Of a DNA stretch of 64,000 bases, positions 17,374 to 60,080 are shown one piece after another; positions within the stretch are counted from its first letter, which is position 1, and every line of letters starts with the position of its first letter. The notes beneath the pieces are model-generated. The model worked only from the letters and a program-made list of their open reading frames with translations, searched no databases and was not told the DNA's origin. The stretch comes from Eledone cirrhosa. Lineage: Eukaryota. The stretch is from NCBI GenBank assembly GCA_964016885.1, contig OZ024740.1:386322001-386386000 (forward strand), written 5' to 3'. Position numbers and translations under genes: made by a program.

Positions 17374-17875
17374 TTTGTGATCATATTTATAATAAAATAC
17401 ATTCTACTTCAATTAACTAATAAAGAATTTTAATGGATTTATTAAATATATTTATTTCATTACTTAGATTGCAACTCAACATAGTTCTTATATACAATTA
17501 TGTTGGAAGATATTTATTTAAATAGGAACCCTATAAAATAGGTGGTTTTGTTTCATAGAATCAGAAACTGGCATAAACAAAACCAATCCTATGAACAAAT
17601 TTTACAATACATTAAATCTGAGAAACCAGAATTTTAATCCAATCTGACACTGTAACCATAACTGATATGATGCACAAGAACCATGTCAATATAAACAGTC
17701 GTAAATCCATTAACACAGCCAATATGAAATACCAAAGTTGTGTCAATATACAGTGTACAAGCTGATCTAACAAGCACATTTTAACCCTTTCATTACTATA
17801 TTTCAATACCATTTCCTATCTATCATTTTCAAATGAATTTGAAAATAATCAAGACTTTGAGGGTATTTAATAATA

Positions 17876-18505
17876 CTAGCAGAAAAACCACCTTCGGGTG
17901 GTTTTCTGCTAGCTTGTCTAGTGTGTATATTGATATTATACGCAAGTATATATGCATGTAGATATGATACATCAAATAAAACCGTAATTGACAATATATA
18001 CAGAAATTGAACGAAGACTGTGTTACACTGTCTTCTGTAATCAGTAACGTAATCCATGATACATTTTAAAAAAGATGATATTATATATCTGCTAGCATGT
18101 GTAGTGTGTATATTGATATTATACGCAAGTATATATGCATGTAGATATGATCAAATAAAATCGTAATTGACAATATACACGGAAATTGAACGAAGACTGT
18201 GTTAGATTGTCTTATTAATCAGTAACGTAATCCGTGATACATTAAAAGAAGACGATATTATATATAAACTGCATTAGGAGAAAATTAGTGACAGAAATAT
18301 ATGAATATTTATTGAAACGATCGCTAACCGGAAGTGTTGACATTTGAAAATTTTAAAGCAGTGAATCTTTAAATAAGTAATAAAATATATTTAATGAACA
18401 GCCACAAAATTTAGTAGATAAATTATGTAATATTCATTCATTATTTATTCAAAGTAATCCAACTTATTTTACTAAGGGGATAAAAAAATTATAAACCGTA
18501 CGCAG
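17876..18505 (-). mobile_element. Non-autonomous Helitron-like element with an internal ~185-bp tandem duplication
   Basis: Inverted homolog of 58755-59202 with shared ends. Terminal hairpin ctagcagaaaaaccacc-ttcg-ggtggttttctgctag, ending CTAG|T on the minus strand. Confidence 0.6.
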
Positions 18506-43058: not shown

Positions 43059-43788
43059 ATTATTAAGGAGCTTAAGGTTTCGATGCATACTATTGGAAGA
43101 ATTGTGCATGAGAGAGGGCAATTCATGTCTCCAAAGACAAAAGATAACTATCTGATCCGTGCAAAGCATTTGTTGAGTAAATTGAAACATCACCAGCCTG
43201 GAATGCTTTGATTTTTCTCTGATGAGTAAAACTTTGATCAGGATCAAAAGGTGAATCGAATGATTGACAGATTATATAAAGATCCTAAAGACGTTTCAAT
43301 GCACACAACGTTTCCAGCGACTGAGATGGTTGTGGGAGTCGTGGGCAACGAATATGTCATTCCTTCTCACTTCTTTCTCTCGGGGATAAGGGTCAATGCT
43401 GCTGACTATAAGGAGCTGTTGGGGTGGGGGGCCGTGGATAGAGAGCGCAAGCAAAGGGAAACCGTACACCTACAAACAAGACTCTGCGTCGTCCCATAAG
43501 GCCAAGACAACCCAAGAATGGATGAGCTACAATCTCCACCACCACGCCCCCGCTATATATATGGCCTTCTAGCTCTGCAGACCTGAATCCGTTGGATTAC
43601 TGTGGATGGGGCATAATCGTGAGAGAAGTCAATCAACGCCCCCATGACACTATAAAAAATTTCTGAAATCTGCCATAACTAGCACAATGTCCAAAATAGA
43701 TAAAGACGATCTGATTTGGTCATATCAACGTTTCGGATCTCCTATTGAAGCAGTTATCTATGCTAACCACGGATTCTTGGAATAGATA

Positions 43789-44925
43789 GATTTCTATTTA
43801 TTGCCACTAGGGCGCAAAAGAAGGGGACAAATACAAGGGGGGAGTTTACACAAAAAGGCGAGTAAAGAAAACAAATAACAAATATAAAATTAACAATAAA
43901 GTCCTCAATAGGGAGGGGGCGTTTGGGGGGTCGCACCCCCCCCCCCCAAAAAAAAGTGTATAACCCCTTCTCCTCAGGAGCACAGAGAGAGGCTGCTCCC
44001 TCCTACCTTCCTCTTTTCCACCTACAGGCTGATGTAGAGAGAAGGCCCATTCACACGGGCCATTCTCGCCACTTTCACCCACCTTTCATAAAAACAACTG
44101 GGGTTGAGCATCTCTCTCTCCATCTTGATCCTTCTTCCGAAATGATATCGTAAGAAACGGATCAGTTGTTGGCCAGAGAGAAAGGTGCCTGACCTGAGTC
44201 CTTTCAGACGCGTCCACCATACAACCTCTTTCACCATGGCTATTACGCACAGAAACACCGCCTCTCCTTCGTTTTTGAAGGGGGGAGGCGGCTTAATCGT
44301 TACAATGGCCTCGGTTATCAACCGTATCGGTCCCACCCGTGATAGCAGTCGTTCGACATAGCCCCACAGATCGGCTACGCCCGAACAGTGTACCAATGCG
44401 TGTGCAACGGTTTCCTCGTCGCACACGCATCTGGGACAGATCTTTTTGGCGGGGTCCCTACCCGGGCGCTCGTGTCTGTAGAGCTTTTCTCGAACGGGTA
44501 GAGCCCCTCGGTAGCACTGCCAGGCCAGGGACTTCTGGAAGTTGTCCATAGGTCCCGGGCTGAATGTCCTACCGAACAGGCTGGCCAGTTCGTCTTCCTC
44601 CATGTCTAGGGCTTCTCCGAGGGCGTCGTCGCACCTGCTGCGTACCAGCCCTCTATAGAATGTCGCGGTGGAGTCTCCACTGATAACCGGGTCCGTCTGC
44701 TAGAGGGCCGTGAGCGCCTGGGCACACTCAGTGTGCCAGGCGCCCAGTTTTCTCGGTCTTTGCTTGACCCAGGATTGTAGCTCGGTGAGTGAGACGAGTC
44801 TGGGAAAGGTTCGTCTCACAAACGGGGACCACACCGGTTGACTGGTGAGGAATACGTGGAGGTGCCGTAGCCTTAATGCGTGTTTACGCATCATTAGCCA
44901 CGGCATCCCCAGCCCTCCTTTCGAA
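43789..44925 (-). mobile_element. 5'-truncated L1/Tx1-clade LINE (ORF2 C-terminus, 3'UTR, (ATCT)n tail)
   Basis: GGLGMPWL and CPRC..EETVAHALVHC (zf-RVT-like). Same family as 49560-54140. TSD ggaatagata at 43779-43788 and 44926-44935. Confidence 0.92.
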
Positions 44926-46422
44926 GGAATAGATACATCGAGAGAAGTCTCAAGATTATTCATGCCAATTTTTTTTTCAAATAAAATTCTTCTTTCATGC
45001 AAACGTCCTCAAAGAACTGAGCAATCGTGTATGAAAAGAAAGACAAAGAGCGAGAACTGCAATCACCGTGGAATTATACTATTCTCAATTGTTGGGAAAA
45101 TACTCGTACGCGTTATTTTAAATAGAATCAACAAACAGCATTATACCCTGGATCCCAACGTGGCTTTCGCACTGGACGTAGTGCTATGTATGATTTTTAC
45201 ACGAAAGCAAGTTCGGGGAAAAGATCAAGAATATGATAAGGAACTCTAAATGTTCTTTAAAGATCTGAGAAAAGTGTTTGGTACTGTATCCAGGGAGGCA
45301 TTATGGACAGTTCCGTCATAAGTAGACATTTTGAATAAGATGAAAAACGTCATTATTTTCTTTCATTATAACATGATGGTGATAGTAATTTTTCTTATAG
45401 TCCATGTTATCATCCTTTCCATGTTTCAAATGAATCTAAACGTGGCTGCGTTCTTGCTCCAGTCTTATTTGTCCTCATTTTTTTTCTAACGACCAAGTGT
45501 GTATTTAATGATTTTGATGGTGTCCTGTTTTACTCCAACCAGACCCGTTTTGGTGCTCAAGTTGGAGTGGGGGGGGGGGGTTAGACCATTCCAGGTGGGC
45601 ATTTTAATTCGCAAGGAACGTATTTTAGTACGTTTCTTGAAAAATAAACTCAATTTTCTAAATCTGAAGGTGAACCCCACCTCCCGCCCCTGCTGCAGGC
45701 ATGGCTCCTACGAAGTTCTAATGCACAACAGTTTAATACAAATACTAAAACTAGATTTCAACTCAAACGAGAGTTTGTTTGTTTGTTTTGTTTTGTTTTG
45801 TTTTTGTTTTTTGCAAATCATTGTGCACTTGTTACTCATTCATTGGAAGAGATGCAGGATCTAATAAATAGATTATCTAAGACATGTAATGCTTTTGGTC
45901 TTGCCATTATCATCACGAACAAACTCAATTTGTTCTTCAGCTCAGAAGAAATACATCAGAGTCGAGTTCTATAATAAAAATCGATGATAACCCAATAAAG
46001 ACAATCATTCTATTTTTGCTATCTTGGCTCTACGGTAACATTAAATGCCAAAATTGATAGCGAAATTGCTCAGTGTATTGGAAAAGCCAGCACTTATTTT
46101 GAAAAATTATCTCAACGCCTCCAGAAAAATCGTGATGTTTCACGTAGGACGAAAATCCAGGTTTATCGTGCTGTAGTTAACCCAACATCAACGATAGCGT
46201 TGAAAAACTTGACATAAGTCGCATTGAAAAATTCTAGTTCCGTACACAAATGCACTGTGTAGAGCACGTCATTTGTATGAAAGGTATTGGAATTCCTTTA
46301 TACTTCTCTACTGGCAATTTTAAAATATCCCCGTTTATCAACGTTTTCCCACTTCTATCCTTTGTTAGTGAGCTGTTCACGACAGAAGAGAGCCCATCCT
46401 ACAAACAGACACATCCTACAAA

Positions 46423-47910: not shown

Positions 47911-47911
<1 letters not shown>

Positions 47912-47988
47912 GGAAAAAATGAAACGAAATTTCATTTCTCACTCTTAGTACTAAGAGTGAGAAATGAAATTTCGTTTCATTTTTTCCG
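47911..47988. repeat. Perfect 78-bp palindrome next to (TA)n
   Basis: cggaaaaaatgaaacg...cttagtactaag...cgtttcattttttccg, with no spacer. Confidence 0.97.
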
Positions 47989-48390: not shown

Positions 48391-48690
48391 ATATGAATGT
48401 GTATTTTGCAATACATTGTATGCTTAATTAAAAGCATTTCGAAGACCTTACGCTATTGTTTTAGAGTAGTGACAATCTCACTTACTTCAATTTTCAGCAA
48501 ACAGGGGAGATAAAGCTGACAGAGCTCTGTTTCGCACTTTGTGGTGCTTATCAAAGCTAACTACTCCGCCTGTTTGCTGAAAATTATGAATGTTTGATTC
48601 TTATAGAATTCCAGTAATAACCAGGAACTGATTATACAGAGCGGTTGCCGGTCAAGCAGAAATTAAAAATTAGAATTGGTGTTCAGAGCA
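48391..48690 (-). mobile_element. ~300-bp HHR-containing retrozyme/pLTR-like unit between (TA)n tracts
   Basis: Inverted homolog of 55016-55390. Confidence 0.8.
48489..48585 (-). ncRNA. Type I hammerhead, U3:A8 core
   Basis: agcu-UUGAUAA-gcac cacaaa gugc-GAAA-cag agcu cug-UC-agcu, with a long bulged stem I (cagcaaacagg/ccuguuugcug). Confidence 0.85.
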
Positions 48691-48872: not shown

Positions 48873-49007
48873 GAAAGTGAGGTTTTTTTACAAAATGAAA
48901 AATAACCGACGTGTCCTACACGAGTGAAAGTATAAAGAAAAAAAAGCTGAAATCGAAAATGCAACTGGAGTCTTATTTTAAAAAATATATATATATTTAT
49001 TTGGTTC

Positions 49008-49043
49008 CTTTACCGGTTTCGCATTTCTTCTGCTTTTCAAAAG
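49008..49043 (-). ncRNA. Minimal hammerhead, UUGAAAA core (left arm)
   Basis: Exact mirror of 49121-49156. Confidence 0.65.
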
Positions 49044-49120
49044 TAGAGTTGAGATGGAGGGTCTGTGGTTTTTCTCGCATCAGATGTGAGAAAAACCACA
49101 GACCCTCCATCTCAACTCTA

Positions 49121-49156
49121 CTTTTGAAAAGCAGAAGAAATGCGAAACCGGTAAAG
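49121..49156 (+). ncRNA. Minimal hammerhead, UUGAAAA core (right arm)
   Basis: cuu-UUGAAAA-gca gaagaaa ugc-GAAA-CCGG-UA-aag. Confidence 0.65.
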
Positions 49157-49220
49157 GAACCAAATAAATATATATATATTTTTTTAAACAAGACTCCAGT
49201 TGCATTTTCGAATTCGTCTT

Positions 49221-49251
<31 letters not shown>

Positions 49252-49370
49252 GAGAATTATAAACTCAAATATAAACTCAATCTAGCTAACTTGGTCATTT
49301 GCAATACAAACACTTATATACTTGTATTAGTGTTTATCCCTATCATATATTTATTTGTATATATATATAT

Positions 49371-49425
<55 letters not shown>

Positions 49426-49559
49426 TGGCTTGGTGTTTGAGTGTTCAATGCGCGCTCGTAAAGTCGTAGATCCAATTCTCGGCGGTGTATTGTGTTTTTG
49501 AGCACGACGCTTTATTTCATATTTTCCAGGTGTATTTAGGTGTATTTCAAAAGTCACCG

Positions 49560-52500
49560 TTATCACACAATGTCTCAAAAGGAATCTCTTTGAGAATTAT
49601 GTTAAGGGTACACATATCTATGGAATAGTCAACCACTGGCACTTTAATTTCATGAGCAGGCTGTCCACTGGCACACTCATCGTTAGAACAAACGGAGGTC
49701 CTTAATACAACATAGTCTTGGGTTGCCCAACGTTTTATGTATGAGATTTGGTAAACGAAAACTGCGTAGAAGCTCTTCGTATATACTTAAATATCTATCC
49801 CCAACGTGTGCCTCTGGATGGAATTTCGCACATAAACATTTCTGTTGAGAGTAGGCGGCCTTCATGTTACCACTGTTTAAGCAGTGGTCACCTGAAGGCT
49901 TACTGTCCTCAGTTAACTAAAAAAAAAAAGAGGCACTACTGCCAACACCCAAAACAACAACACAACCACCACCACCACCACCACCACCACCACCACCACA
50001 ACAACAACAACAACAACACGCAAACACAACCAGAACAAGAACAACAAACCAACCTGCAAGCACAGTCCCACCCAACCCCACTCCATCTAAAACCACTGCA
50101 AAAACACCCACAAACACAACAGCTCCCCAAAACATACCCCTTCCAAATAACACAGACACCACAACGGACGAGGGCCCCATATCATCACCAAGTGACGATG
50201 AGGGAGAGCCTTTCCGTTCGAAAAGAAAGAAGAAAAGACACCACAAGAACAAAAAAACAACAAACATCACTACAAACATACAACCACCAACACAAACAAC
50301 ACAAACATTACAAACAAAAACCCCCCGTCCCGAAAACAAAACCACGACAACACTCCAAACACAAACACCTACAACAAAACGAAAGCTCCCACAAGAACAA
50401 CAGACAAAAACCACCGCAACACAACAAGAACATTACACATACATAAACAGTAGAAACAAAACTTTAATGGAGGTCATCTCCAACGACCCTTCGGTTTTCA
50501 CCGAAGGGAAAACTTTTTCGAACTGTGTAGACAAACCTAATTTAAAGATGATTAGGGTCCCTACGGACACCTATAGGTCTTTAAAGGAAAACTTTCCTAA
50601 GGACGTAGGTAATCTTTGGGTTAAACCCATTAACCGCGTCCTTTTAAAAAGTTTCCCCACCCTCACCCCAGACACACCCACCCCAGACACCCCCAACCCA
50701 CCCCGCCGGAAACCACCATACACCCAGACATCTCCTCTAACACCCCCATGGAAAGCGTGCGGCCTGATCCCCGGGAGACGAAGAGGTGAGTGTTTTCTTC
50801 TCCTCTTTTAACTTTTCAGAACCAACATGGCCAATATAAGAGTTGGGTGTGTGAATGTACGCGGCCTGGGGATGCCTGGAAACAGGGCAAACTCTTAAAC
50901 GACCTCAGGTCGCACAGTATGGATGTAGTAGCCATTTGCGAGTCCAGGATCCACAGCGAGCGACAGCTGGCCCCCATCTTCGATGACTTTGAGATCTACG
51001 CATCTCTCTGTCAGCCGGGGGGTGGGGGCGGAGTTGCCGTTTTGCTGCGGAAACACCTGGACCTCGTAACACAGATGGTACATTTGGACACGGAGGGTCG
51101 ACTGGTGGTCTGAGACGTTGACGGTAGTGAAGGTGGAGCCTTCAGGCTGGTGGCCGCATATACCCCATCCGGGACACCACGGCTAGACTTCTTCAAACGT
51201 CTAGAGACTTTTCTGGGAACGTGTCGCTCCTTGCTTTTAGTGGGGGACTGGAATGGATCCTAGATGCACGTTGGGACTATGTGGGAGCATGTCGCGATAA
51301 AGGGGGGTGTAACATCCTCAAACAGTTAATCGGCCGATTTGACCTGGCCGATAGATATCGACTAGATTTTCCGACTGTGCCACTGTGGACGTGGACTAAT
51401 CTTAGCGGAACATCTAGATCGTACCTAGATAGGGTTCTAGTTAGAAATAAGGATAGGGACATGTTAAGCTGTCCACAAATGTTCATGGTTGCCTATTCAG
51501 ATCATAAACTAGTGACCTGCATGGTCAACCCTTGATAGAACCCATAGACAAGGACCCGGCTACTGGAAGCTGAACTTGTCGTTACCGACATGCAAAGCAT
51601 ACAGTAGACGGATTAGCACTTTAGTTAAACAGCACTTGACAGGGGCCATTGTCAACAACAGATGGTGGTACTCTCTCAAGAGGGCAGTTAGATTAGACTC
51701 GTTAGTTTTTAGTAAAGAATTAGCGTTAGATAGAAATAGAACCGAGAAAGAACTGGTAGATAAAGTAGAAGAGGCAATTAAAAGTGGGAACGTAGCCAGC
51801 GTGCTAGCAACGAGAACGGCCCTGGACCAGTTCTTTGACGCAAAGCATGAGGGCTGCGTTGTCAGAAGCAAAATACGTGCTCTGGGAAACGAGGGAGCCA
51901 AAGCTGTTAGCTGGGCCCGGGTGACGGAGGCAAAAAGTGGCAACAAGTCCAAGATTCGGTCTTTGAAGGACAAAAACGGACGCGTGATACGTGAGCCTAA
52001 GCAGATGTGTGCGGCCTTTCAGCGTCACTTTGCTCAGCTGTTCGGGCAGGGCGGCGCGTCGGGAGGGGCTATGGATTTCGGTCCATACCTCGACGGCCTA
52101 CCGCGACTCTCGGACAGCGAGGTAAAGTTTTGCGAAAAGCCGATTTCAGCCGCTGAGATAGAGGACGCGCGGAGCCAATGCGGCAAACGCAAATATCCAG
52201 GTTTCGACGGTCTACCCTACGAATTTTACGTAGCAATACCGGACTTATTCTCCGGTCTCCTGCAACTGGCAACAGAACGGGAGAATTCCCAGTTCTGTGA
52301 CCGGGGGCGTAGTCACACTAGTCAGGAAGGACGAGAATAAGGGGGATGACATAGGCAACTTCCGGCCCATAACTCTGCTAAACCAAGAGTTACAGATTTT
52401 GGCCAAGGTATTGGCAAAGAGGCTGGCGCTTGTCGTCGAGAACCTGGTGGGAGAAGCGCAGACATGCGTAATCCCGACCAGGTCCATTCACGACAACCTC

Positions 52501-54140
52501 CATCTCATGCGATATATAATAGAGAGGGTGGAGCCCTGATCAACTTGGATCAGTCTAAGGCTTTCGATAGGGTTGACCATCGTTACCTGGATGCGGTGCT
52601 CGAGGCGGCAGGCTTCGGACCCGTGTTCAGGGGCTGGATTGCTGCAATGCATAACAGCAACATCTGCTCAAGGGTTAAGGTGAACGGCTACATCTCGGAG
52701 CCGTTCCATATCACGCGATCAATTCGACAGGGATGCCCTCTCTCCTCCCTTCTGTACGTATTGACTCTCGAGCCACTACTGCGGAAGTTGGAGCTATTGC
52801 AGGGCATCCCTCTGGAACCGGGACTGCGGAAAGCGGCGTCGGCCTACGCCGACGACGTGACAGTAATGGTGTCGAGCGCCTCGCAAATAGAGGAAGTCGG
52901 CACCTTACTGAAGGAATACGAAAGGTTCACAGGAGCGAAGCTGAACCGGGACAAGTCCATCGGTTTGCAACTTGGATCGTGGAGAGGCAAACCGATGCCT
53001 TCCGATGGCGTCGTCGGACGCTGGACGGAAGGACCAGTAAAGCTCCTTGGGGTCTGGTTTGGTCCGGACCTCCAGGTGGAGAAGAACTGGAACGAGGCGT
53101 CGGCCAAGGTGTTTGCACTCACCCAGAAGTGGGCCGAGTGCAAACTATCCTTGAAAGGTCGAGCGGAGGTGGCGAACACTTTTATAGCGTCCGCCATCTA
53201 CTACCGCTTGACCGTCGTGCCTTGTCCAGCCAAAACGCTCACCAAAATGGAGCGCGTGCTCTTCCAATTCCTTTGGAAGAGGCGGGCTCCTTTGGTGAGA
53301 AGATCCATCTGCTGCCAACACCCTTCTAACGGAGGGCTGGGGATGCCGTGGTTGACGATGCGTAAACACGCGCTCAGGCTGCGGCATCTCTACGCATTCC
53401 TCACCGGACAACTGGTGTGGGCCCCGTTCGTGAGGCGAGCCTTCCCACGACTCGTCTCGCTGACCGAGCTCCAGTCCTAGGTCAAGCAAAGACCGAGGAA
53501 AATGGGCGACTAGCACATCGAATGTGCTCAGGCGCTCACAGCCCTCTGGCAGGCGGACCCGGCGATCAGTGGAGACTCAACTTCGTCATTCTATAGAGGG
53601 TTGATCCGCAGCAAGTGTGACGACGTGCTCGGTGAAACTGGGCGTAGAGGAAGACGAACTGGCCAGTCTGTTCGGTAGGACCTTCCGCCCGGGACCGATG
53701 GACAACTTCCAAAAGTCCCTGGCCTGGCAGTGCTACCGAGGAGCTCTACCAGTTCGAGACAAGCTCTACAGACATGGGCAGAATCAGGATGGAGAGAGAG
53801 GTGCTGTACCCCAGCAAGTTTTATGAAATGTGGGTGTAAGTGGCGAGAATGGCCCGAGCGAATGGGCCTTCTCTCTATATCAGCCTGTAGGTTGAGGAAA
53901 AAGAGGAGGAGAGGAGAAGAGTACAAACTCTTCGTACTCCTGGAGATGAGGGTTGCACATTTTTGGGGGGGGTATGTGTTACCCATATGAAATGTCTCCC
54001 CCTAATTGGGGAAAATCAACTAATTTTTAAATTACATTTGTGATAATATTTTACACGTTTTTATTGTATGTAAACTTCTCCCTTTGTATTTGTCCCCTTC
54101 TTTTGTGCCCCTGTGGCTAATAAAGAAACACATCTATCTA
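49560..54140 (+). mobile_element. Near full-length L1/Tx1-clade LINE
   Basis: ORF1 remnant with CCHC knuckle CYHCLSSGHLKAYC, then ORF2. The 3'UTR has AATAAA and an atct tail. The 5' end is uncertain. Confidence 0.92.
50827..53890 (+). pseudogene. Disrupted ORF2 (APE endonuclease plus reverse transcriptase)
   Basis: MANIRVGCVNVRGL, GDWN, YLDR, SDH, GYWKLN, NFRPITLLN, LDQSKAFDRV, RQGCPLS and AYADD. Several stops and frameshifts; the zinc finger is deleted at ~53780 relative to the 44-kb copy. Confidence 0.92.
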
Positions 54141-54350
54141 CACACACATATAAATAGATTCCCGAGTGGTGTCGAGGTGGGATAATCACAGTTAAAAAAG
54201 GTACTCAATACATTGGTAGAGTATAGGCATATTTATTATATACATAAAAATGACTTCTACAAGAGTAGAACTATTTCATTCGTATGAAATCATCAAGGAT
54301 GAAACAGTTCTAAATATATATGTGAATGAGGTTTTGGGTTGCTTGGTTAA

Positions 54351-54440
54351 CACGTCTGATGAGCAGATGAAGCTGGAGTTGGATGTATAAACATTTACAT
54401 GAATCCTGAGCCACCTATCTGTGAAATGGTCGTAACAGTG
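54351..54440 (+). ncRNA. Type I hammerhead motif with long stem II
   Basis: cacgu-CUGAUGA-gcagau...aucugu-GAAA-U-GGUC-GUA-acagug, followed by AAUAAA. Confidence 0.65.
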
Positions 54441-54755
54441 CATAATCAATAAAGTGAAACCTCATTTCGTTCTTTATATATATAATATATATAATTCTCA
54501 CAACCAATCTTGATTGGTTTGTACATGTTACGATGAAAGTTGAGGAAACCAATGGTTGTATTCACTTGTGGCGATGCGATATTGAGTTTCGTATCATTGT
54601 TGATGTCTATAAGATTATAGGTCAGATGATGCGACCACTTGAGAACATAGAAACGGTTTTACCACACACACACACACATATGTATGATCCCGTGACTCCC
54701 GATAGAGCGTTTCTCGGGCATTTTTAAGCCTGGTGAAGCCTATCCCTCTCCAGGC

Positions 54756-54801
<46 letters not shown>

Positions 54802-54892
54802 AACGATCGACTTTCGTCAAATCGGACCGAGGGAACAATGTTTCCGTTGGTCTTTCCAATTTCTAATACTATATATCGGTCGCAACTCCAGG

Positions 54893-55016
54893 TAGAAGGA
54901 GCAACGTGAAATAAAGTGTCTTGCTCAAGGACATAACGCATCACCTGGTCGAGGAATCGAACTCACAACCTTACGATTGCGAATCCAATTCTCTAACCAC
55001 TCAGCCACACGCCTTC
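54893..55016 (-). mobile_element. SINE family B-related tRNA head
   Basis: Reverse complement reads ggcgtgtggctgagtggttagag...gagttcgattcc...cttgagcaagacactttatttc. Confidence 0.8.
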
Positions 55017-55384
55017 ACTATATATATACATTCATATATATATAGCTATTTCAGAGCACCAATTCTAATTTTCAATTTCTGCTTGACCGGCAACCGCTCT
55101 GTATAATCAGCTCCTGATTATTTACTAGAATTCTATAAGAACCAAACATCCATGAATCCAGCAAACAGGAGGAGTAGTTGGCTTTGATAAGCATCAATAA
55201 ATGCGAAACAAGGCCTTGTCAGCTTTATCTCCCCTGTTTGCTGAAAATTACAGTAAGTGTGGCTGTCACTACTCTAAAACAATAGCATAAGGTCTTCGAA
55301 ATGCTTTTAATTAAGCATACAGTGTATTGCAAAATACACTATATATACATTCATATATATATAGCTATTTCAGAGCACCAATTC

Positions 55385-55390
<6 letters not shown>
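55016..55390 (+). mobile_element. Retrozyme-like unit with 319-bp period and terminal redundancy
   Basis: tacattcatata..gctatttcagagcaccaattctaatttt is repeated (gctatt at 55045 and 55364); central HHR. Confidence 0.8.
55159..55243 (+). ncRNA. Type I hammerhead, U3:A8 core
   Basis: ggcu-UUGAUAA-gcau caauaa augc-GAAA-caa ggcc uug-UC-agcu. Predicted cleavage after 55220. Extended stem I. Confidence 0.88.
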
Positions 55391-55440
<50 letters not shown>

Positions 55441-55541
55441 ACCAAATGTTAATAAGGTTCATTGATTACTCAATGAATATAGTTTTACAATAGATTAAAA
55501 GCACTCAACAAAGAAGTTTTCTGGAGTTATTAATATTATTA

Positions 55542-55611
55542 AAAATATTAATAAATGAAGACGTTCACATAATCAATGATTATGTGAACGTCTTCATTTA
55601 TTAATATTTTG
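55542..55611. repeat. ~70-bp hairpin of a pLTR-like 3' fragment
   Basis: aatattaataaatgaagacgttcacataatca-a-tgattatgtgaacgtcttcatttattaatatt; homologous to 58010-58050. Confidence 0.9.
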
Positions 55612-55652
<41 letters not shown>

Positions 55653-55655
<3 letters not shown>

Positions 55656-55728
55656 TGTGTCCAAAAAATGTATACACGTATTTATTAGAATGCTGTTAAA
55701 GTGTGTATACATTTTTTGGAACACCCTG
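55653..55728. mobile_element. 76-bp Tc1/mariner-type mini-MITE
   Basis: TA|cagtgtgtccaaaaaatgtatacac ... gtgtatacattttttggaacaccctg|TA. Confidence 0.8.
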
Positions 55729-56669
55729 TATATAGAGATAGGCATACACTTCTGTGTTTACGTCTACACCGCCTAATAAACTGGTTCTGTTTGTTTATGT
55801 CCTTCCTGTAAGTTAGCAGTTCGACAAAAGAAGATCAATGAGATAAAAATTGTCGCAGTCAAATGACTGAAGCAAGTAAAAGAAATAATATAACTATATA
55901 CACACGTATCAGCAAGGTAATAATAAAAAATCAGCAAGCTAGGCAAAACTAGTGTATTTAAGTTACTCAAAGTCATTTAATAATCGTACATTTAATATAC
56001 TTGCATTCAGGGACGGACTCATTGCACATATGAGGATTATTTTAAGTCTAGTGATAATTTAAATTCAAGATCTATTTCATTTATATAATTTATTAAAATT
56101 ATATGATGAAAATAGCATTTATATAACTCATTAAACAATAATGATAAAGGAGAGAAAAAAGAGGGATGGGGAATTCACCACCAAGTGCGACAATCGGCTG
56201 CACTTCACATCTTAGGGGTTAATCATGTTAATTGGGTTAATAATTGTTTCTAATGACCTAAAATGTGATATTTTATGTATCGATTCAAACCTCTTTTTCT
56301 TTCCTTTATAATTTTTGTTCAAGAATTTATATTATTGTGTTGTTATACACGGTTTAGATATTATATGTCTTTCTGAACGAATTGCGAGCAATTTATGTTA
56401 TTTACGCATTTGTTATGTTATTTATGTATATATTTAAAACATATTTGCAACGTTATTCTACTGTAAATTTATACAATTGTAAAATAAAGTACACAATATA
56501 TTACTACACATTTGCCAAAAAGTGACTAGTGGCCAGAAGTAGTGCCCTTTTCTGGCTATAAAAAGATGGTGAAAAAAAACCGTTACGAATTTTACCGCCA
56601 AAAGTACGAAAGGCGTGAAAATGTCGTCGAAAACAATATGTGCATATAAGATGAAAGAGAAAAGAAAAG

Positions 56670-56807
56670 TACATACGATAATTCCTTACTACACATCCAT
56701 ATATACACACAAATATATATATATTATATTATATATATATATATATAATATAATATATATATATTTGTGTGTATATATGGATGTGTAGTAAGGAATTATC
56801 GTATGTA
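56670..56807. repeat. 138-bp palindrome centred on a TA microsatellite
   Basis: tacatacgataattccttactacacatcc... is mirrored by ...ggatgtgtagtaaggaattatcgtatgta. Confidence 0.95.
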
Positions 56808-56861
56808 TATATATATATATACGATATTAATAAATGGAAACTATATTTATAAAACCATATT

Positions 56862-56926
56862 TATTTCATTATACATATTTCAGGGATACCACATTAAATT
56901 ATGGTATGCCTTCATCAGACAAAATA
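56862..56926 (-). ncRNA. Type I hammerhead (left arm)
   Basis: Mirror of 57080-57144. Confidence 0.8.
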
Positions 56927-57079
56927 CAATATATAACAGTTTTACAAATAGGTTTGACGTACCTTTTAAAATACAACCATTTCTTTTGGAGGCTGTGGGC
57001 ACTATCCAGACAGCCTCCAAAAGTAATGGTTGTATTTTAAAGGGTACGTCAAACCTATTTGTAAAACTGTTATATATTG

Positions 57080-57144
57080 TATTTTGTCTGATGAAGGCAT
57101 ACCATAATTTAATGTGGTATCCCTGAAATATGTATAATGAAATA
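57080..57144 (+). ncRNA. Type I hammerhead with minimal stem III (right arm)
   Basis: uauuuugu-CUGAUGA-aggcauaccaua auuuaa ugugguaucccu-GAAA-U-AUGU-AUA-augaaaua. Predicted cleavage after 57136. Confidence 0.82.
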
Positions 57145-57384
57145 AATATGGTTTTATAAATATAGTTTCCATTTATTAATATCGTATATCTACTCCAAAA
57201 ATTTGTCGAGTGCTTTATATCAGTTATAAAAATATTTACTTGTTGGGTTATTTATTTATTTTTTTTACAAAACGAAAAATAACCGAGGTGTCCTACACGA
57301 GTGAAAGTATAAAGAAAAAGAGATGAAATCGAAAATGCAACTGGAGTCTTATTTTAAAAAAAATATATATATATTTATTTGGTT

Positions 57385-57419
57385 CCTTTACCGGTTTCGC
57401 AGTTCTGCTTTTCAAAAGG
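57385..57419 (-). ncRNA. Minimal hammerhead, UUGAAAA core, within the element at 57260-57455
   Basis: ccuu-UUGAAAA-gca gaac ugc-GAAA-CCGG-UA-aagg. Confidence 0.72.
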
Positions 57420-57450
57420 TGAGTTGAGATGGAGGGTCTGTGGTTTTTCT

Positions 57451-57517
<67 letters not shown>

Positions 57518-57695
57518 CTCACAATAAATAAAATGTTAAATAGCAATTAATATACATATATATATATATATATATAAAACGGTGGTGATGATGATGATGA
57601 TGAGATATATATATATATATCATCATCATCACTGTTTTATATATATATATTAATTCAAAATATTAACAAATATAGACATTTATGTGATCAAGTAT

Positions 57696-57760
57696 ATTTT
57701 ATTATACATATTTCAGAGGTATTGAGCTATTTTCAACAGTACGTCCTCATCAGATAAAAT
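57696..57760 (-). ncRNA. Type I hammerhead
   Basis: auuuuau-CUGAUGA-ggacguacug...caauaccucu-GAAA-U-AUGU-AUA-auaaaau. Confidence 0.78.
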
Positions 57761-57940
57761 AAGTTGATGCTGACATACCTTGACTATGTTGATGGTTAAA
57801 ATTCAGTCATGGCAGAGAATTAGTTATGACAAAACTCAATATTTATATACCTTAAGATTGAGACATGAAAAAATTACATATGATACAGAGGGTGCGTGTG
57901 AGAAAGCTTATAAAGATTCATAATAATAAATAAATAACTA

Positions 57941-58012
<72 letters not shown>

Positions 58013-58052
58013 TTCAAAATATTAACAAATGTAGACATTCACGTAATCAAAA

Positions 58053-58122
58053 TATATTTTATTATATCTATTTCGGAGGTACTGTGCTGTTATTTCAGTA
58101 CGTCCTCATCAGATAAAATATA
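58053..58122 (-). ncRNA. Type I hammerhead
   Basis: uauauuuuau-CUGAUGA-ggacguacug...caguaccucc-GAAA-U-AGAU-AUA-auaaaauaua. Confidence 0.82.
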
Positions 58123-58130
58123 ATCTTTGG

Positions 58131-58172
<42 letters not shown>

Positions 58173-58445
58173 TTATAAAAAAGTAATTTTTTTAAATATC
58201 TCACACGGGTAGTAAAAAAATTATTATGCCTAATCATGTGACAGTCAACAATAAATAAAATGGTAAATAGCAATTTTGAGTCACTTTTTCTGGCTCAAAA
58301 AACCACTGTACCTAATCATGTGATTGTCATCAACCAACCAAATTACATTTTAAACAAATAGTAACTTTTTTTGTATGGAACAGAAAGAATTTTCAAACTC
58401 CACCTTGATATGAAACACACTACAACAGAAACACAAAACCTCAAT

Positions 58446-58489
58446 TTTACTTTTGAAAATCATAAGAACTGTGAAACCAGTAAAGTAAA
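58446..58489 (+). ncRNA. Diverged UUGAAAA-core hammerhead
   Basis: uuuacuu-UUGAAAA-(weak stem II)-GAAA-CCAG-UA-aaguaaa. Confidence 0.55.
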
Positions 58490-58600
58490 TAAATATTCTT
58501 AAAAGACTCCATTTACATTTCAATTTCTTTTCCTTATATATATAAAATAATTAAGTCAAATAGGTAAAATTTGGCTTCGTTTATTATATATTATAGATAT

Positions 58601-58754: not shown

Positions 58755-59202
58755 CTGTGTACGGTTTATAATTTGTTATCCCATTAGTAAAATAAGTTGG
58801 ATTACTTTGAATAAATAATGAATGAATATTACATAATTTATCTACTAAATTTCGTAGCTGTTCATTAAATATATTTTATTATTTATTTAAAGATTCACTT
58901 CTTTAAAATTTTCAAATGTCAACACTTCCAGTGGCGATCGCTTAAATAAACATATTAATTTTCTGTCACTAATTTTCTCCTAATGCAGTTTATATATAAT
59001 ATCGTCTTTTTTTAATGTATCATGAATTACGTTACTGATTACATAAGAGAGTGTAACACAGTCTTCGTTCAATTTCTGTGTATATTGTCAATTACGATTT
59101 TATTTGATGTATCATATCTACATGTATATATACTTGCGTATAATATCAATACACACACTACACAAGCTAGCAGAAACCTCCCGAAGGGTGATTTTCTGCT
59201 AG
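58755..59202 (+). mobile_element. Helitron-like element, second copy
   Basis: Homolog of 17876-18505; terminal hairpin followed by CTAG|T. Confidence 0.6.
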
Positions 59203-60080
59203 TATATATAATTGAGTGACACAACTTCAAGTGATTAGCAATTTTTAGACACCCTAATCAATGACACAATTGTTAATACTGTAAATAAAAGCCTTTTTGT
59301 ACTGTTGACCATGTTATTCTTCACTCTTTCACCATATATATAGGGGGGGGGGGTGTAAGCGATTCCATTTAATTGCTGACTTATTGGTTTCATGTTTGTC
59401 TGAAAAACTAGTAGTTTGTTGAGCTACTTTTTGCTACCAAGCTTGATCTCTTAGTCGTTAGTGGCAGCCATAAGCTGTTTCATTCTTTACAAGCTATATT
59501 TTAGCCTTGGTCTAGCCTCAATATATCTTTACCAATTTAAATACATGTACGTTTATCTGGTGTTTCTCATCACTGATTATCTTCTCTGTTTACATGCAAT
59601 TGACTCTACAATATAAATTATTCCATTGACATGAACATTTTCTACACATTATCCTTTCGACTGTGTACAACACTAATGTATGCATGTTAGTACATTCTCC
59701 ATAACACATTTCTACTAGACTAATTATGTAATTGACTTATTGATGTATAGTTTCACAAAGATATTTATGTAAGCTTTGCCTTCATTGATGTTGCAGAATC
59801 AGAAATTGCTAGAAATTAAAGATTGTTCATAGGAATAAAAATGTTAATGAATTACCTATAAAAGTTTCTTTCCCAAAACTGGCCTCTTTCGATCTTGTTG
59901 GTAAAATAGTGATTACATAACATGTAATTTGAAAATGTGGGTAAAATAAGAGAGAATTCGGCAGGTATCAATTTTCAACATGAATCAATGCAAATTTTAC
60001 ATATTTATTTATTTAATCAATTTCAATGCCTGTATAGAGCTAATAAGCCATGACAAACTCAGAGAGGTATCTTATACTCC

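Follow-up and report, generated by a model that had tools for sequence, protein, structure and literature searches.

Minimal type I U3:A8 hammerhead motifs in a likely 5'-truncated Penelope-like element

In a 64,000-nucleotide stretch of contig OZ024740.1 (hereafter the window), four copies of a small motif with a UUGAAAA core had been read as minimal hammerhead ribozymes, which raised the questions of whether the motif is a hammerhead at all, what kind of element carries it, and whether any copy could still cleave. All four instances listed by this sequence-only reading were present at the right positions (49008 and 57385 on the minus strand, 49121 and 58446 on the plus strand). They very probably represent minimal type I hammerheads with a U3:A8 pair, carried in the 3' end (pseudo-long terminal repeat, pLTR) of what is likely a 5'-truncated Penelope-like element (PLE) and predicted to cut only when two copies associate as a "double hammerhead". 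Going by its sequence features, the motif is real and is a PLE minimal hammerhead, one more such family with a core already in print. We make no claim that the UUGAAAA family of this host is unreported; work by Luense et al. from 2017 reportedly may contain closer variants, possibly the exact UUGAAAA motif.

The UUGAAAA motif and its published counterparts

The four motifs have the common form stem I-UUGAAAA-stem II-GAAA-CC(G/A)G-UA-stem I. All 13 core positions were identical in the four copies and fit the U3-A8 covariant of CUGANGA together with GAAA and NUH, and contiguous stem I pairs (three in each of the 49-kb copies, four at 57385 and seven at 58446) close each of them as type I. The motifs at 49008 and 49121 are identical in sequence; because they lie on the two arms of one inverted repeat, the family amounts to three loci and three distinct sequences, not four independent cases. 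Stem I had been described as varied yet always paired, which held for ccuu/aagg at 57385 and for the 7-bp stem at 58446 but not for the 49-kb copies, where the three pairs of cuu/aag are followed by an A.G mismatch. The variable loop II (GAAGAAA or GAAC) and the retention of gca/ugc in three of the four copies were borne out; in the same number G10.1-C11.1 closes a 3-bp stem II and ACCGGU is present, its palindromic 15.2-16.2/loop 3 region allowing a stem III between two molecules. The copy at 57385 (gca-GAAC-ugc, ACCGGU) is the only one with every stem intact. At 58446 a U.U replaces G10.1-C11.1, stem II keeps two pairs, and the non-palindromic ACCAGU takes the place of ACCGGU; this copy holds GAAACCAGUA. 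With type I architecture, a U3:A8 pair and a self-complementary ACCGGU whose stem III is predicted in the dimer only, the proposed dimer-type minimal hammerhead stands, while the A7 offered as a variant is none, since the published consensus allows any base (N) at position 7.

As judged from sequence, the UUGAAAA U3:A8 core is not new, having been printed for PLE minimal hammerheads. Cervera and De la Pena (2014, PMC4209133) described U3-A8 minimal hammerheads from Cercyon PLEs with about 1,300 matches in Schistosoma mansoni. They also found pairs on opposite strands at distances of 100-700 bp, and dimers that cleaved at a low level whereas monomers did not cleave. The row Schistosoma_mansoni(4)*, a Cercyon PLE, appears in their Fig. 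S3 and Table S1 with the core UUGAAAAA, and Fig. S3 holds a further row with the core UUGAUAAA, many A7 rows, and variants with a small palindromic helix III. Natural U3-A8 covariation was also reported by Perreault et al. (2011, PMC3088659), with earlier in vitro activity cited for it and U10.1-U11.1 tolerated. The Cercyon Sm3 and Sm4 rows (PMC4209133) resemble our motifs in being type I, with U3-A8, A7 (in S. mansoni(4)), a short stem I, G10.1-C11.1 and a palindromic 15.2-16.2, and in occurring mostly as single or opposite-strand copies of truncated elements. They differ in that stem II has 4-6 bp in those two rows versus 3 bp here, the extra base after A9 is absent here, and our motifs have a 2-nt CG insert in stem III (ACCGGU) and GUA versus their NUU/NUG. 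The likeness to the Schistosoma elements noted here is one of motif features. A 2-nt palindromic insert is found in the Drosophila Penelope, Marsupenaeus, Adineta and Aedes PLE rows of Fig. S3 (PMC4209133), which unlike ours carry the canonical C3-G8; the Marsupenaeus (shrimp) row also has a 7-nt unbulged core, a short stem II, a CG insert and A17.

The host repeat and its ends

Each motif lies inside a copy of a repeat of about 200 bp, some 40 nt from the 5' end of the repeat (Table 1). The stretch 57455-57260 was 93% identical to 49080-48883 over 200 nt, and the 58.4-kb copy was 72% identical to the repeat over 122 nt. At 49 kb, two copies form an inverted repeat with arms of 139 nt each (48943-49081 and 49083-49221), 96% complementary and separated by 1 nt, joined 5' end to 5' end with respect to the motif strand and with a tail on one arm only. 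Two copies end at CTTTATA or CCTTATA and pass into (TA)n at 49221 and 58535 (67 and 52 nt past the predicted cut, respectively), and the other two run on through a common 48-49-nt extension ending TTTTGTAAAAAAA, 128-130 nt past the predicted cut; (TA)n likewise follows 57455.

Published marks of PLEs include strong truncation at the 5' end, a neighbouring 5'-truncated copy in inverted orientation, (TA)n targets (an insertion bias of Neptune, Hydra and Naiad PLEs), a hammerhead near the 3' end, and a tail of 30-40 bp, in many cases on just one end (Craig et al. 2021, PMC8557442); the tail has been explained as the span between two internal reverse transcriptase (RT) start sites (Frangieh et al. 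2024, PMC11167929). Present here are an inverted 5'-joined pair, a tail on two of the four copies, (TA)n junctions and a hammerhead close to the 3' end, in keeping with those accounts, so that the motif, earlier thought to hide as AT-rich noise, sits in a recognizable repeat with PLE-type ends. From this comparison the host repeat likely belongs to the PLEs; with no open reading frame (ORF) here, it has no placement among the Neptune, Hydra, Nematis and Poseidon groups of PMC8557442. Under this reading, an autonomous PLE elsewhere would supply the RT and GIY-YIG endonuclease and nick (TA)n, reverse transcription would start at one of two internal sites to give ends with or without the tail, and it would abort about 40 nt upstream of the hammerhead, once yielding an inverted second copy.

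One feature of the repeat is not predicted by random 5' truncation: three arms (57455, 49081 and 49083) start within about 2 nt of one position (ATGTGAGAAAAACC), even though the 57385 copy lies 8 kb away. Such a common start would be expected if the ~200-bp unit were itself a mobile non-autonomous element derived from a PLE, retrozyme-like or SINE-like (short interspersed element), with a fixed 5' end and possibly moving as a palindrome, and animal retrozymes have been argued to be PLE derivatives (bioRxiv 10.64898/2026.07.22.740005). The non-LTR retrozymes of that preprint resemble our repeat as short, non-coding, PLE-related units with a type I hammerhead, but they comprise at least two tandem units with complete canonical hammerheads, whereas here the hammerhead is minimal and we found no head-to-tail tandem units, their defining trait, the same-strand copies in the window being 8.3 and 9.3 kb apart. 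The common start is also explained if the 57385 copy and the 49-kb locus stem from one insertion (93% identity) or if the pLTR boundary lies at that position, and we regard a mobile non-autonomous unit as unlikely. A bolder version, which we rate as similarly improbable, would make the unit a fixed-length non-autonomous PLE-derived element whose U3:A8 hammerhead, among the smallest natural ones (35 nt, a GUA site, stem II of 3 bp and no extra base), still cleaves by pairing in trans with transcripts of other dispersed copies, at least two separate repeat families of this host having switched from C3:G8 to U3:A8.

Conservation, chance expectation and predicted folding

The sequence-only reading had proposed asking whether the core is more conserved than its flanks, and in the one informative comparison, that of the 58446 copy with the others, it was: against each of the other copies the core was identical at 13/13 positions, and the non-core columns at 69/103, 67/103 and 65/100 (one-sided Fisher p of 0.008, 0.006 and 0.006, the three comparisons not being independent). 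Stem I shows one two-sided change, C-G at 57385 to A-U at 58446. The 58446 copy has lost G10.1-C11.1 and the palindrome, partly through CpG-type substitutions: two of the changes, a C>T and a G>A, fall at CpG sites, which is what neutral decay would produce.

To gauge chance we used a descriptor of a U3:A8 minimal hammerhead (stem I of at least 3 pairs, stem II of at least 3, palindromic stem III) and, as a control, 200 dinucleotide-shuffled windows, shuffled in 2-kb blocks. The descriptor had three matches in the window, missing the 58446 copy with its shortened stem II and lost palindrome, and at least one match in 1 of the 200 shuffles, or in none when the G-C closing pair was required; this rarity is optimistic, because the descriptor was written after the motif had been seen. 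No fifth copy was found in the window with a covariance model built from the four motifs, the next-best hit scoring 14.6 bits against 69-80 bits for the four themselves, scores that are high by construction. Rfam gave no match at the gathering threshold in the window, the hammerhead clan CL00010 included, and no hammerhead match at E<=10 on any of the four motifs. Rfam microRNA matches at 49028-49136 fell far under the gathering scores and merely reflect the palindrome. The family-specific pattern had no matches in metagenome contigs and none in viral contigs; a relaxed pattern had two metagenome matches (L001 and L002), apparently inside bacterial coding frames when judged by eye, which we dismissed as chance (stem II unpaired, three to four stem I pairs, 24-27 bits versus 69-80). 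We also weighed, on inspection by eye, a possible short intron beginning GTAAAG past the predicted cut, and discarded it for its length of 26-45 nt and poor donor.

These searches bear on whether the likeness to a hammerhead is a coincidence, in which UUGAAAA and GAAA occur by chance in an A/T-rich repeat and in which CUUUUGAAAAG and ACCGGU are DNA palindromes with another role or none. It would agree with this that three of the four copies are in effect one young sequence, that predicted folds favour non-hammerhead pairings in three of the four, that covariation is not significant, and that the Rfam hammerhead models pass the motifs over. The same Rfam models, however, also stay below threshold on the neighbouring canonical-core motifs, the shuffles rarely yield the motif, no core position differs in a copy whose remaining sequence is only ~65% identical, PLE-type ends lie within 52-130 nt of the motif, and a PLE with the same core has been published, all of which makes coincidence a remote explanation.

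As for cleavage, ACCGGU is predicted to give no useful hairpin closure and to pair with itself (self-duplex of -8.3 kcal/mol), leading to the double-hammerhead fold, which for the 57389 core was predicted at -15.9 kcal/mol versus -9.8 for two monomers. Two ACCGGU hexamers would pair into a 6-bp stem III, and cleavage would follow GUA, slowly and possibly with the help of a protein. In an Anolis PLE, the hammerhead requires protein for cleavage and is not needed for insertion in vitro (PMC11167929), and the in vivo role of PLE hammerheads is described as still open (PMC8557442). Given the fold energies and stem I pair probabilities, only 57385-57419 is plausible as a working ribozyme, and even there another fold is predicted to be more stable than the active one. 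RNA transcribed through the 49-kb palindrome is predicted to form a hairpin of -216.5 kcal/mol. Since no two copies lie head to tail and the hairpin of the palindrome transcript would bury the motif, the copies in the window are likely inert, and the motif most likely worked weakly in the tandem transcript of the parent element rather than at its present loci.

The strength of that hairpin, and the way in which 57385 differs from 49011, could instead hint at co-option by the host, with the 57385 copy active as a regulatory ribozyme or with the 49-kb palindrome giving rise to hairpin RNA or small interfering RNA. Differences between 57385 and 49011 are concentrated within the motif (25/28 identical plus a 3-nt gap, versus 88/90 outside) and improve stem I. 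We recognized no host gene nearby, however, the surroundings being microsatellites and transposable-element debris, and palindromes of this kind are common at (TA)n in this region, as PLE insertion predicts; co-option is the least probable of the explanations we weighed.

Several observations weigh against a PLE minimal hammerhead. In the motif itself, stem II is short (3 bp) and the unpaired extra base between A9 and 10.1 is missing from all four copies; this base is usual but not universal, and we do not take its loss as excluding since it is likewise missing from the Marsupenaeus and Saccoglossus(2) rows (PMC4209133). In the repeat, the tail of 48-49 nt is longer than the published 30-40 bp, and Pfam scans of the window found no remnant of a PLE RT or GIY-YIG domain. 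These scans covered 15 chosen ORFs, the six frames of 54.0-60.0, 45.5-49.8 and 16.0-20.0 kb (14.3 kb), and 130 of the 231 stop-free frames of at least 62 aa, the remaining frames being covered by other Pfam scans or of low complexity, and yielded only EEP, RVT_1 and zf-RVT of the type of long interspersed nuclear elements (LINEs), DUF7041 and weak matches; with no PLE ORF found, we infer the tie to an autonomous PLE from architecture only. Among the comparisons, there are only three distinct sequences, core versus flank is uninformative among the three young copies (p 0.47-0.59), the result for 58446 is inflated because that copy was noticed through its core, and covariation does not rise above shuffles, 334/500 of which reach one two-sided change with three distinct rows. 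In the folding, the double hammerhead was never the minimum-energy dimer (-15.9 versus -18.6 kcal/mol for 57389, -10.9 versus -17.7 for the 49-kb copies and +1.2 versus -16.4 for 58453), and the in-context pair probability of stem I was 0 in the 49-kb copies and 0.34-0.36 in 57389.

The motif is of little importance alone, and its truncated copies make no easier test of the in vivo role of the hammerhead than existing systems do. Its value is modest: it is a reminder that descriptors restricted to CUGANGA miss PLE ends, and it marks a 10-kb stretch as the landing site of several PLE-like families.

Table 1. Hammerhead motifs of the UUGAAAA family and the repeat copies that carry them (window positions)
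Feature	Position	Strand	Remarks
Minimal type I hammerhead motif	49008-49043	-	36 nt with stem I; core from U3 at 49040 to A17 at 49011
Minimal type I hammerhead motif	49121-49156	+	36 nt with stem I; core 49124-49153; on the opposite palindrome arm
Best-preserved motif	57385-57419	-	35 nt with stem I; core from 57415 to 57389
Diverged, probably dead motif	58446-58489	+	44 nt with stem I; core 58453-58482
Repeat copy with tail, left arm of palindrome	48883-49081	-	
~48-nt 3' extension (putative PLE tail)	48883-48930	-	on left arm, missing from inverted arm; PLE-tail identity suggested by PMC8557442 and PMC11167929
Inverted tail-less copy, right arm of palindrome	49083-49220	+	ends CTTTATA, joined to (TA)n
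Repeat copy with tail (57259-57307)	57259-57455	-	abuts (TA)n upstream
Older tail-less copy, ~72% identical	58413-58534	+	ends CCTTATA, joined to short (TA)n

Neighbouring hammerhead families and other repeats

A relaxed scan found 10 hammerhead-like motifs in the window, nine of them within 48.5-58.2 kb: three of the UUGAAAA family, two UUGAUAA motifs with a full stem III and four CUGAUGA motifs. The tenth is at 17.8 kb. The two UUGAUAA motifs, also U3:A8 hammerheads, lie at 48518-48554 (minus strand) and 55184-55220 (plus strand) in a host repeat at 48399-48687 and 55051-55339; their stems I and II are each 4 bp long and stem III is complete, and they could fold as monomers and had weak matches to the Rfam model HH9 (23.1 and 21.6 bits, E of 0.05 and 0.16). 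From sequence, the UUGAUAA family is more likely to be active than the UUGAAAA family. Because BLASTN found no match between the host repeats of the two, they are separate repeat families, to that extent in line with the separate lineage that had been suggested.

The repeat abutting the 57385 element has the same architecture as the UUGAAAA repeat: it is palindromic (56814-57240, with 183-nt arms) and carries CUGAUGA hammerheads at 56870-56918 (minus strand) and 57088-57136 (plus strand), and its apparent tail of ~50 nt adjoins the tail of the 57385 element. In four read runs this highly repeated family was represented by 5,778 contigs in X1, 33,039 reads in X11 (a restriction-site-associated DNA library dominated by few loci), 79 contigs in X6 and three in X4. 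Its reads contained many strand-switch joints with variable inversion centres, and loose ends into (TA)n at 57189 (5,704 reads of X11 and 61 contigs of X1), with depth continuing for about 50 nt further. Among 40 of the 56 differences, the sole one in the catalytic core was at position 7 (57092 T>A, 28 contigs of X1), and another, 57132 G>A (114 contigs), turns stem III into a perfect palindrome. These variants support real hammerheads in this neighbour and an ordinary A7, and are not direct evidence on the UUGAAAA family.

A further CUGAUGA family is represented at 57703-57753 and 58063-58112 (both minus strand, stem I of 8-10 bp) in repeats at 57651-57761 and 58010-58120, and a 79-nt palindrome at 55537-55615 is built from the 3' end of the same family. 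The motif at 17794-17832 (minus strand) is hammerhead-like with a UUGAAAA core, a 5-bp stem I, a long stem II and GAAAUAUAGUA; it was not matched by the UUGAAAA-family model and aligns only loosely to the CUGAUGA families. At ~54357-54435 (plus strand), CUGAUGA is followed by a long spacer, GAAA and GUC, and inspection by eye suggests that cagaug pairs with (u)aucug; this may be a hammerhead with a very long stem II, beyond the 40-nt limit of the relaxed scan. Near-perfect short palindromes without a hammerhead also lie by (TA)n at 47911-47988, 55652-55729 and 56672-56805, possibly very short inverted insertions of similar origin.

In general the window ranges from 25 to 56% GC per 2-kb bin, contains much (TA)n and (GA)n, and has decayed LINE pieces as its only long ORFs; we take it to be animal non-coding DNA. 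A decayed LINE at 49745-54140 retains remnants of EEP endonuclease, RT and zf-RVT together with an ORF1-like region rich in Pro and Thr, and its RT at 50.8-54.0 kb was ruled out as that of the parent element, being LINE-type (EEP plus RVT_1). A second LINE 3' fragment lies in inverted orientation at 43783-45008 (minus strand). Inverted copies of another repeat, 92% identical, occupy 17873-18505 and 58755-59205; this repeat ends in a short GC hairpin and then CTAG, which is reminiscent of a Helitron 3' end.

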